A DNA stretch of 44,487 bases from a virus (lineage: Duplodnaviria; Heunggongvirae; Uroviricota; Caudoviricetes). Position numbers and translations under genes: made by a program. The notes under the pieces are model-generated. The model made no database searches and was not told the origin of the DNA. It saw nothing but the letters and a program-made list of their open reading frames with translations. The stretch is taken from the IMG/VR virus record IMGVR_UViG_2718218131_000009, positions 1 through 44,487 of that record, one strand, 5' to 3'. Below, piece by piece: positions 25,186 through 35,342 of the stretch. How positions within the stretch are numbered: position 1 is the first letter of the stretch; every line of letters begins with the position of its first letter.

Positions 25186-25668
25186 TTAGTTCAGGCACTG
25201 AGTGCGGATATAGTCCTGTGCCCCTTCCAGCTGCTTCTGCATTGTCATCAACCGTTCTCTGAGGATGAAATAATCCCGTTCAGCGGTGTCTGCCAGTCGG
25301 GGGCTGGTTGCATTATCCACGCTGGTGGGTCCGGTGGCTTCACGCACGGCTGCGGAGCAACTGGCATTGACCCGCAGGCGCTTACGACCAGCGGCAACAT
25401 CAGCGCGCAGAGTTTCATTTTCAGCTTTCGCATTGGCTAATTCTCTCGAGTACTTTGCATCGAGCGCAGCAACATCACGCTGACGCTGTTGCATGTCAGC
25501 GATGGTGGCAGTCGCCTGCTTCAGCTCACTGACTTTTTTATCACGCTGTTCTTTGTAGGCGATGGCGTTATCACGGTAATGATTGACCGCCCACGACAGG
25601 CAGACGATGGTGCAGATAACCAGAGTATAAATAATCGCTGCGACTCTGCTCACTGATCTATCCCCCAA
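25186..25668 (-). CDS. i-spanin Rz
   Basis: N-terminal transmembrane segment and coiled-coil periplasmic domain. The Rz1 ORF is embedded in the +1 frame. Confidence 0.85.
25248..25433 (-). CDS. o-spanin Rz1 (lipoprotein)
   Basis: Embedded in Rz. Lipobox VVSAC and Pro-rich mature region. Confidence 0.8.
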
Positions 25669-26183: not shown

Positions 26184-26246
26184 GGATATTTATCAGGATT
26201 TATCGGTTTCTGCCCACGGACAGGTTTATCTGTTCCGGTCAGTGAC

Positions 26247-26597
26247 TTAAGGTTGTGATTCCGGAGGAGTCTTCAGAGAACCAGTAATTCTTCCCGGTAG
26301 CTTTCCTTTGTAGGTTATCCATACATTCTGCGCCTCTAAAATTATGGGGCGCTTTTCCGGTGACTGCTCATCCCCTTCACATAACCCGGCAGCAACATCC
26401 AGGAAGACCTGTCTGATGCTCCTTCTGGCTGCTGCCTCATAAAACTCCAGCGCGGCACCTTCAACACGGTCCAGCGAGATGTCCAGGTCAAAAATTTCAC
26501 CGTCAAAGCGTTTTTTGTCCCGTAACGCTAAAGTTACCGTAACTTTATTCTCAAAATTGCGGATCCCTTTCACAATCACTTTATAGTTTTGAGTCAT
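26247..26597 (-). CDS. YdfR-like (DUF1327) protein within the lysis cassette
   Basis: 116 aa soluble protein between holin and endolysin, the position ydfR occupies in the K-12 Qin prophage. Confidence 0.5.
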   Translation of the reverse strand: MTQNYKVIVKGIRNFENKVTVTLALRDKKRFDGEIFDLDISLDRVEGAALEFYEAAARRSIRQVFLDVAAGLCEGDEQSPEKRPIILEAQNVWITYKGKLPGRITGSLKTPPESQP

Positions 26598-26601
26598 TGA
26601 A

Positions 26602-26817
26602 TTACTCTCCCCGTGCAGCCTTACGCTTGTCTTCTTTAATCTTGAAATAAAGATTTGTCAGATACGTCAGCAGGCCAAACACCAGACTACCCAGCACACC
26701 TATTGCCGCCCACTGTGAGGGCGTGACTTTATCGAGCAACTGTAAAAACCAGTACCCGGCACTACCTGCTGAGGTGCCATAGGCGACACCCGTTGTTAAC
26801 TTATCCATGGATTTCAT
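26602..26817 (-). CDS. Class II pinholin (S21-like)
   Basis: 71 aa. [26 protein letters not shown]... is close to phage 21 S, including the dual-start Met1/Met4 motif. Confidence 0.85.
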
Positions 26818-26884
26818 AACCCCACCTCGCAGATGCGGGTGCTGTGTAATGGAAATAAAAAGGCCACCTGACGTGGCCACCAGA

Positions 26885-28561: not shown

Positions 28562-29008
28562 ATGAATAAAATGACTGTACTATTACTTAGCGCAACTATC
28601 ATTTCAGGTTGTACTTCTTCCGTACCATTGATAAAAAAAACTCAATCAGGAAAACCTGAGGGGGTTTATCAAAATACGACAAAAGATAAAGTCAAAGATG
28701 CCCTTGTGAATTACTGCAATAGTAGAGGGTTGATAATTTACAACGCTGATAACAGCAGTGTTATATGTGGTAAAGAACTGGAAGGCGGGTCTGCTGTTTT
28801 TGGACAAATGTTAATCGGCAATGCCTATTCAACAACCCCGGTATCAAAAGTCAGATTTACTATCGCTCAAGTTAATAACGATACAAAAGTGTGGGCCGAT
28901 ATGTGGATGGAAACTCAAATGGCAATGGGGCAAGTACAACAAATGGCTATAACAGACAACGCAAGCAAAAACACTATCCAACAACGTCTTGATGAATTAA
29001 AACCTTAA
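28562..29008 (+). CDS. Lipoprotein (moron)
   Basis: Signal peptide with lipobox ISGC. AT-rich, on the strand opposite to the late operon, followed by a hairpin terminator. Confidence 0.7.
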   Translation: MNKMTVLLLSATIISGCTSSVPLIKKTQSGKPEGVYQNTTKDKVKDALVNYCNSRGLIIYNADNSSVICGKELEGGSAVFGQMLIGNAYSTTPVSKVRFTIAQVNNDTKVWADMWMETQMAMGQVQQMAITDNASKNTIQQRLDELKP

Positions 29009-29092: not shown

Positions 29093-29473
29093 CTAACGAT
29101 CCATCTCTAGCTCAATTTCTAACATCATTAACATGCCATCAACTACACCTTCAGCCTTTTGCAATAAACGCCCAACCCAGCAATCAGAACGCCCATGTTT
29201 ACGGGCAAGCGCCATAAACGTCATACCACCTACATAATAATCCACTAATAAATCGTGCAAATCGCTGTTGTTCTTTTTCAGGCGAGCCATGCACCCACAA
29301 ATGATCATCGCATCATCGTCACAACATTGCGGGCGGGATTTTACTTTTGAAGGGATTAGTCCTTTAAATCCTGCAGCAATAGACGACCAGGTGACATCCT
29401 CGTGATTATTTGCCACCCATGCCCCCCAACGTTCAAGAACCATTTGAATATCACGCATCAACGTTCTCCACAA
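29093..29473 (-). CDS. Late-gene antiterminator Q (phage 82/21 type)
   Basis: [14 protein letters not shown]...[18 protein letters not shown] matches the QuuD-type Q family. Located upstream of the lysis genes. Confidence 0.8.
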
Positions 29474-34194: not shown

Positions 34195-35342
34195 TTGCGC
34201 CCCCTTACCTCTGAAGGGTTCAGTGACAGATTTATGAGACTGGCCAGTACCGCCGCGTCGTTGATGCGGTCATACAGACTTATAGCCAGCGGGGATTCGG
34301 CTTTTGCCAACATGGGATAAAGCTGCTGCAGCCAGACTTTGTGGATTACCGACAAGTGGGAGTAAAGCACGCTGGCGTTATGTGCGGCATCGCTCAGCGT
34401 GGATGGCCTTGAAAGCTGCTTTTCCATCTGGTTAAAGGCATTGATGTATGCCTCTTTGAACTGGGCAGCACGTTTCCCCGTGAAACCCATAGCAAGAAAC
34501 GCAAAGCCGTCGCGGGTTATTTGATAGCAAGGTAGTTTGCGGCCTGTGCAATCGGTGTAATCACTCACCGAAAAATTGCGGGCAGTGAATGATGCGGAAC
34601 ATTCAAGCGTGCGGATCTTTTTCAGTACATCGTCATGACGTTTGGAGAAGAAGTTGGCAACAGCCAGGGATGAAGTAACAGCCTGACCATCAACGATGGC
34701 AATTTCAGGTTGAGTGAGGGTTGGGATCGTAGCCATGATGGCAGCCTCTTTGGTGATTTTTAATAACTCACCACCAAGGCTTTCCACGACCTTATTGGTG
34801 GTGAGACGTACAGGGGTGGAAATACCGGTCACCAAAGAACCCGGCCCAACCGAAGTTGGCCCTGCACGCCCCACCATAATTTGGGCGTAATGCTGCTCAT
34901 GACACAAAAAAACCGCAAGAGCGCGGTTGTGCGCTTTGGTGAATTCCGGGTTTCCACGCCCGGCACCCGCTTTATAAGGTGCCTGAACAGTGTAACGTCC
35001 CGGAATGGCAGAATCAATGTGCTGGTGGTCCTTCACACTCAACAAAATCACGCCTGAATTTCCACAAAGGACTAAAGCACTCATGCGGGTAGTCTTTGCG
35101 AAGATAGATAACGCGCTGCGTTTCTGGCTCCCAACGAATAACATGGACATAAAGCCCTCTTCCGTCACGAAACCAGCGGTTAAGTTCCTGCACAACTCGC
35201 CCCCCACAGTCAGGTAAAGTTCTCTGTGGTTACTTACAGCCAGGTGATTTGGTAATCTGCATTCATGCCGTAACAACAGGTGTTCAGCGACGCTGACCAC
35301 CAGCTGTTGCGACAAACGGTTATTTGCCGTTAAACTGTTCAT
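34191..35342 (-). CDS. Rha-family regulatory domain protein with ~200-aa N-terminal region
   Basis: C-terminal half (from M203, ATG at 34736) is IPTLTQPEIAIVDGQAVTSSLAVANFFSKRHDDVLKKI, a Rha domain. The upstream 202 codons are in frame and begin with an ATGA overlap to the CII-like gene. Confidence 0.6.
   Translation of the reverse strand: MNSLTANNRLSQQLVVSVAEHLLLRHECRLPNHLAVSNHRELYLTVGGELCRNLTAGFVTEEGFMSMLFVGSQKRSALSIFAKTTRMSALVLCGNSGVILLSVKDHQHIDSAIPGRYTVQAPYKAGAGRGNPEFTKAHNRALAVFLCHEQHYAQIMVGRAGPTSVGPGSLVTGISTPVRLTTNKVVESLGGELLKITKEAAIMATIPTLTQPEIAIVDGQAVTSSLAVANFFSKRHDDVLKKIRTLECSASFTARNFSVSDYTDCTGRKLPCYQITRDGFAFLAMGFTGKRAAQFKEAYINAFNQMEKQLSRPSTLSDAAHNASVLYSHLSVIHKVWLQQLYPMLAKAESPLAISLYDRINDAAVLASLINLSLNPSEVRGRK

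Follow-up and report, generated by a model that had tools for sequence, protein, structure and literature searches.

A YdfR-family gene as an optional insert between holin and endolysin in a phage lysis cassette

The Qin prophage of Escherichia coli K-12 encodes YdfR (P76160; DUF1327/PF07041) between a class II holin and a lysozyme, the gene order being essD/Q-ydfR-rrrQ-rzpQ. The one experimental lead on the function of the family concerns this K-12 protein. A two-hybrid library screened with RNase G as bait yielded a fragment comprising the first 72 codons of K-12 ydfR on three occasions (Gopel et al., RNA Biol 2026, PMC13232886). The same 72-codon fragment gave stronger two-hybrid signals with RNase E than with RNase G, and a full-length, short-linker fusion of K-12 YdfR tested positive against Rne1-597 and negative against Rne1-498 and Rne1-415 (PMC13232886). 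In an in vivo co-purification, Rne1-598-FLAG co-eluted with Strep-YdfR of K-12, and the Strep-YdfR eluate contained much DNase-resistant nucleic acid (PMC13232886). When K-12 YdfR was overproduced, few transcripts were altered and growth was not impaired (PMC13232886). The association of K-12 YdfR with RNase E, seen under overproduction, could be bridged by RNA. Phages offer precedents for the targeting of RNase E, for instance T4 Srd, T7 gp0.7 and phiKZ Dip (PMC4980113). In the literature on DUF1327, ydfR and pinholin cassettes we found no lysis study of ydfR.

We analyzed a stretch of 44,487 nt from a virus of the class Caudoviricetes (IMG/VR record IMGVR_UViG_2718218131_000009), referred to here as the window. 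The coordinates of the gene under study and of its neighbors are collected in Table 1. A sequence-only reading of this DNA had described a 116-aa protein encoded between a pinholin and a SAR endolysin, at the position that ydfR occupies in K-12 Qin. The open reading frame was found on the minus strand at exactly 26247-26597, its neighbors match PF04971 and PF00959, and its place in the cassette is that of ydfR in the Qin gene order. An HMM search for DUF1327, which the same reading had proposed, gave a match to PF07041 with E=4.6e-41 (139.4 bits, cut-off 25) that spans model positions 1-92 of 93. In these points the earlier observation and its interpretation both hold.

Table 1. Coordinates of the ydfR-family gene, its parts and neighboring features in the window
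Feature	Position	Strand	Remarks
ydfR-family gene, Pfam DUF1327	26247..26597	-	ATG-to-TAA ORF, 116 aa + TAA stop
Conserved N-terminal domain, codons 1-74	26376..26597	-	Three beta-strands then long helix; counterpart of the RNase E-interacting part in K-12 YdfR
Exchangeable C-terminal module, codons 75-116, EKRPIILEAQNVWITYKGKLPGRITGSLKTPP...	26247..26375	-	Modeled with low confidence
Shine-Dalgarno (SD) GGGGAGAG for ydfR	26605..26612	-	Embedded in final holin codons, 7 nt upstream of ydfR ATG
Spacer from ydfR stop to endolysin ATG, 63 nt	26184..26246	-	AU-rich 3' end ATAAATATCC-ATG, no SD
Class II S21-type holin, 71 aa, dual start Met1/Met4 (MKSM)	26602..26817	-	PF04971 'P21 holin S', E=2e-35
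Lysozyme, 177 aa, SAR-like N-terminal hydrophobic segment	25650..26183	-	PF00959, E=1.1e-24
Rz (i-spanin), GTG start overlapping endolysin stop	25186..25653	-	PF03245, E=7.7e-50
Rz1 (o-spanin), embedded in Rz	25248-25433	-	PF06085, E=7.5e-19
Antiterminator Q	29093-29473		PF06530; upstream in gene sense
N6/N4 DNA methyltransferase, 350 aa	26885-27937	-	PF01555, E=2.2e-42; directly upstream of holin in late operon

The window open reading frame is almost certainly a member of the YdfR/DUF1327 family. Membership of this kind is already catalogued and annotated: a gene 100% identical to the window open reading frame is present in E. coli Z1323CEC0016, where PGAP names it 'YdfR family protein', and the window gene is an intact, ordinary member in the usual place. 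Its PHROGs matches, phrog_406 and phrog_2091, are both labeled 'unknown function'. A search of NCBIfam with the window protein gave no match, and the PADLOC-DB defense models gave none at E<=1 with either the window protein or three longer family members. The earlier description of the product as a protein of unknown function agrees with Pfam and PHROGs, which assign none, but is slightly out of date given the report on K-12 YdfR and RNase E (PMC13232886). The motifs YELxVKG and EGAxLEFYEA are kept across 28 aligned homologues. At codons 6-7 (26577-26582, minus strand), where the first beta-strand starts, the window allele has Lys6-Val7, whereas at least 90% of the 28 homologues have Glu6-Leu7. 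At 99% identity or more, the window allele is matched by only 32 E. coli genome records.

Several observations bear on whether the gene is real. The holin stop codon at 26602-26604 is followed by 4 nt and then by the ydfR ATG, and the anti-SD duplex energy at ydfR is -8.5 kcal/mol, compared with a median of -2.9 for random 20-mers of the window. The dN/dS of the N-terminal 72-74 codons was 0.2-0.3 in most pairs (dS 0.2-1.7), with a value of 0.27 at dS 1.6; it was higher, 0.36-0.68, in pairs with the contig L094, which is described below. The tail of the gene gave 0.27-0.49. Compared with the holin (omega 0.06-0.13) and the endolysin (0.10), ydfR (0.27-0.49) evolves faster. ydfR is therefore under purifying selection, and this selection is weaker than that on the holin or lysozyme. 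Because the product matches DUF1327, the SD is strong and dN/dS against diverged homologues is 0.2-0.3, ydfR is a genuine gene and a chance open reading frame is excluded. A foreign base composition was also considered for ydfR and rejected, the GC content being 45-48% as against ~50% in the flanks.

The product had been called a non-membrane protein, and its hydropathy bears this out. The maximum Kyte-Doolittle value over 19 residues is 0.71 for YdfR, compared with 1.72 for the holin and 1.87 for the N-terminus of the endolysin. By hydropathy, no transmembrane or SAR segment was found in YdfR of the kind expected of a holin or of an antiholin of the S21-71 or T4 RI type.

The protein consists of two parts with different histories. 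Residues 1-74 of the window protein align with K-12 Qin YdfR without gaps at 78% identity (58/74) and 96% positives (71/74). An AlphaFold2 model of this domain alone has a mean pLDDT of 86.6 and a pTM of 0.74; its predicted elements are three antiparallel strands (E5-14, E18-27 and E34-43) followed by a helix (H50-74). The full-length model has a mean pLDDT of 59.8, and residues 71-116 fall below pLDDT 50. At E<=0.001, Foldseek returned no match in the PDB with the full-length or N-domain model and none in BFVD with the full-length model; the best E-values were 0.058 (PDB) and 0.017 (BFVD). The top fold matches were tyrosine phosphatase fragments, de novo beta-sheet designs and uncharacterized phage proteins; all lie above E 0.001 and no function can be inferred from them. 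When a profile of the 28 homologues was run against PDB sequences, the sole result was centromere protein P (E=0.62), which we regard as noise. Thus the PDB, BFVD and profile-versus-PDB searches gave no sequence or structural relative hinting at RNA binding.

The tails of family members differ. There is a K-12 type, an mEp460 type and the window type, as well as long forms of 176-206 aa that carry a coiled-coil-like extension, and in one family member a window-type tail is joined to a different N-terminus. DNA homology to other cassettes ends inside or just past the C-terminal module. The long forms cannot be derived from a window-type gene by frameshifting, since the homology is lost near codon 112 and picks up again 10-55 nt before the endolysin gene R; they are module replacements. 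By the same comparisons the tail, together with the stretch that reaches to 10-55 nt before R, is a recombination hot spot. In the E. coli UTI89 locus (L084) an antisense open reading frame of 90 aa (phrog_2411; 2811-3083 of that locus, minus strand) lies between the ydfR N-domain and R. The region between the ydfR N-domain and R also varies in L089 and L094.

The holin has start codons at 26817 and 26808 for its MKSM dual start, and it belongs to the P21-S holin family, which is the pinholin family (PMC10462455). The lysozyme is 92.7% identical to K-12 RrrQ. Its N-terminus is hydrophobic and rich in Gly and Ala, and the motif E35-x8-D44-x5-T50 can be read from the translation. The labels pinholin and SAR endolysin given to the two neighbors of ydfR fit these sequence features. 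For the start of Rz we followed PGAP, which annotates the identical sequence in L003, and the window sequence itself. In gene sense, Rz/Rz1 are followed by the small and large terminase subunits.

Other features of the window were noted in passing. The methyltransferase upstream of the holin recurs in mEp460 and several IMG/VR relatives with 99-100% identity. Between its stop and the holin start lies a terminator-like hairpin, GGCCACGTCAGGTGGCC, followed by a T-run (26862-26878, minus strand); this hairpin sits within the expected Q-antiterminated late transcript. Antisense between Q and the late genes, an open reading frame of 148 aa at 28562-29008 (plus strand) starts with a lipoprotein-type signal, MNKMTVLLLSATIISGC...; it belongs to phrog_3152 (unknown function), has no Pfam match and looks like a moron. 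Farther away, at 34794-34982 (minus strand), two adjacent matches at the Rfam gathering level were obtained, one to C4 antisense RNA (34794-34881, 83.6 bits) and one to isrK (34906-34982, 67 bits). They correspond to the P1/P7-type antisense immunity RNA pair in a lambdoid prophage; isrK is an Hfq-binding sRNA.

The family is common within a narrow host range. Of 5426 complete E. coli genomes, 4310 (~80%) contain a ydfR-like sequence, with up to 9 copies per genome; 101 phage records, including mEp460 and Stx1a and Stx2c phages, contain one too. When 1.84 billion cluster representatives were searched exhaustively with HMMER, only 63 proteins were returned, mostly fragments; the one match outside the family, a 3128-aa G2F-repeat protein, was discarded as repeat-based or compositional. 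In a scan of 185,579 species through their representative genomes, matches were confined to Escherichia and Shigella, apart from two MAG contigs labeled Veillonella parvula (L092) and Bacillota bacterium (L094). Both contigs carry a Qin-type holin-ydfR-lysozyme cassette with 94% holin identity, and they are most likely mis-binned Escherichia contigs. Class II holin, ydfR and lysozyme follow one another in this order in all 80 IMG/VR loci and likewise in each of the 13 more diverged ones. Across these 93 loci the holin-ydfR junction does not vary, and in none of them does ydfR lie away from the holin-endolysin junction.

The converse does not hold, as many cassettes of this type have no ydfR. 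In 933W, which has no ydfR, R itself starts 4 nt after the holin stop, with the same SD and the same spacing. A direct S-R junction of this kind is present in 231 phage records and in about 900 E. coli genomes. ydfR is therefore an optional insert in this cassette of lambdoid Escherichia prophages and is not needed for lysis as such. The absence of ydfR from 933W and hundreds of other phages argues against an essential role in lysis. The statement that ydfR interrupts the holin-endolysin pair is correct for this locus, but the gene is not a fixed part of the cassette.

The insertion also leaves R in a different context for translation. In all 92 ydfR cassettes, no SD precedes R: the last 20 nt have a duplex energy of +0.6 kcal/mol or weaker, and a conserved AU-rich sequence, ATAAATATC(C/T)-ATG, closes them off. 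ydfR and R start 307 to 873 nt apart, depending on the cassette, and 414 nt apart in the window. We infer that the presence of ydfR must change the translation of the endolysin. The 63-nt spacer of the window is identical in 73 of the 82 cassettes compared (window and related loci). A regulatory RNA hairpin in this spacer was considered and rejected: the predicted fold is no better than that of shuffled sequences (z=0.37), and a small stem is not kept in UTI89. No Rfam match was found in the spacer.

Our preferred explanation, which we offer tentatively, is that window YdfR may be a late-expressed cytoplasmic accessory protein that binds RNase E and RNA. We favor it because the 78% identity noted above extends across the mapped interaction region (K-12 residues 1-72), and because phages have precedents for targeting RNase E. 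The association with RNase E and RNA is known for the K-12 paralogue only; the window protein would presumably act in the same way, and the importance of such action for the phage is likewise presumed. According to this explanation, ydfR would be transcribed together with the late and lysis genes, and its translation would start from the strong ribosome-binding site within the 3' end of the holin gene, which in cassettes without ydfR is used by the endolysin. The product would be a small cytoplasmic protein with a beta-beta-beta-alpha N-domain and an exchangeable tail. Late in infection it would act on RNA decay or on translation, and it would not be a structural part of the lysis machinery. 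That YdfR is not a core lysis component is indicated by the direct S-R junctions and by its faster evolution relative to holin and endolysin. On the other hand, the invariant location at the holin-endolysin junction is at least as easily explained by a lysis-related role. The slight response of transcripts and the unimpaired growth on overproduction of K-12 YdfR, and the lack of relatives hinting at RNA binding in the searches above, also speak against the RNase E reading.

The explanation just given and its rivals are not mutually exclusive. YdfR could be a cytoplasmic regulator of lysis timing, like T4 RIII or P1 LydB. It would delay or sharpen triggering by binding either the S21-type pinholin, at its charged C-tail in the cytoplasm, or the SAR endolysin that has not yet been released. 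The position of the gene, after a class II holin and before a lysozyme in 93 of 93 loci, would suit such a regulator, as would the coupling of ydfR translation to the holin stop, by which YdfR would be made in proportion to the holin. T4 RIII provides a model, being both a small cytoplasmic antiholin cofactor and a binder of RNA machinery (PMC9409239). The Keio deletion of K-12 ydfR is CPRG-positive, that is, envelope-leaky (PMC3879167, supplement), but the resistance cassette may have caused this phenotype by polarity on downstream rrrQ. Moreover, Pfam, PHROGs and NCBIfam show no similarity to a known antiholin or lysis regulator, and the fold searches gave no significant match. One and the same ydfR allele (95-98% identical) occurs beside holin alleles of 79-100% identity, which gives no sign of co-adaptation, and functional phages exist that have no ydfR at all. 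Given this balance we think such a timing regulator rather unlikely. A related proposal puts the effect in cis: by its insertion ydfR would distance the endolysin from a strong ribosome-binding site and so lower or re-time the SAR endolysin relative to the pinholin, the protein being secondary. The missing SD before R in 92/92 ydfR cassettes favors this proposal, with the site of -8.5 kcal/mol now held by ydfR and occupied by R in 933W; in K-12 the overlap of the ydfR stop with the R start (ATGA) points to coupling. A mere spacer, however, would not need a protein under purifying selection (omega ~0.27). With ydfR-to-R distances of 307-873 nt, coupling is also lost in most forms, including the window with its gap of 63 nt. 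As the main reason for the presence of ydfR, we consider the cis effect quite improbable.

A benefit to the lysogen must also be considered, in which ydfR would be a moron expressed from the prophage under cold, antibiotic or envelope stress and would help the host and not the phage. That K-12 keeps the gene in its defective Qin prophage, and that some four-fifths of the E. coli genomes (4310/5426) have it, is in line with this. The Qin cluster is up-regulated in cold shock (cited in PMC13232886), and in one overexpression screen a ydfR clone showed a three-fold higher streptomycin MIC (PMC12924614). Such screen hits, however, are single, unvalidated observations, and almost no RNA-seq reads were obtained for ydfR in growing K-12 (PMC13232886). 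Nor was a separate promoter found; apart from the late-operon context, the only signal nearby is the terminator-like hairpin that precedes the holin. We judge the moron explanation very unlikely. Finally, the preferred reading of YdfR as an RNase E/RNA-binding protein could be joined to lysis itself. YdfR might be a holin-coupled, late-expressed adaptor that docks on membrane-bound RNase E and reprograms the stability or translation of lysis and late mRNAs, one target being the SD-less endolysin message to which the insertion of ydfR itself gives rise; it would thereby set the ratio of pinholin to SAR endolysin and the time of lysis. This is a speculative idea to which we give little weight. 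If true, it would make YdfR a phage-built link between RNA decay and lysis.

The window gene alone adds little, since it is an ordinary and correctly recognized member of its family. The family is nevertheless a reasonable small target: it occurs in about four of five complete E. coli genomes, inside one of the best-studied lysis cassettes, and the RNase E lead is recent. The presence/absence polymorphism, combined with the loss of the endolysin ribosome-binding site, offers a simple handle on the question of lysis tuning.

Compared with described systems, the locus is closest in layout to the Qin cassette, in which ydfR likewise lies between a class II holin and a lysozyme and has the same SD and the same 4-nt spacing after the holin stop. 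The differences lie downstream. After residue 74 the K-12 protein continues with SEKVESYLQHQYSFKIENPANKHERPHHKYL and the window protein with GDEQSPEKRPIILEAQNVWITYKGKLPGRITGSLKTPPESQP, two unrelated tails, and the K-12 ydfR stop overlaps the R start whereas 63 nt separate the two genes in the window. Cassettes of the 933W and phage 21 type (S-R-Rz/Rz1) share with the window a homologous holin, lysozyme and spanins and an identical SD-stop-4-nt-ATG junction. In 933W the ATG of this junction belongs to R; in the window it belongs to ydfR, and the start of R, lacking an SD, lies 414 nt farther on.

As an RNase E-associated protein, window YdfR would resemble T4 Srd and E. coli RapZ, both of which bind the catalytic N-terminal half of RNase E, possibly the same target region. 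RNA binding may be a further property that window YdfR has in common with RapZ, by homology to K-12 YdfR. Neither Srd nor RapZ shows sequence or fold similarity to YdfR. Among lysis proteins, T4 RIII, which binds ribosomal protein S1, and P1 LydB are small, soluble, cytoplasmic and linked to holins, as is YdfR, and no homology to YdfR was detected for either. The T4 RIII gene, unlike ydfR, is not located inside the holin-endolysin pair. RIII combines lysis control and interference with RNA machinery in one protein (PMC9409239).
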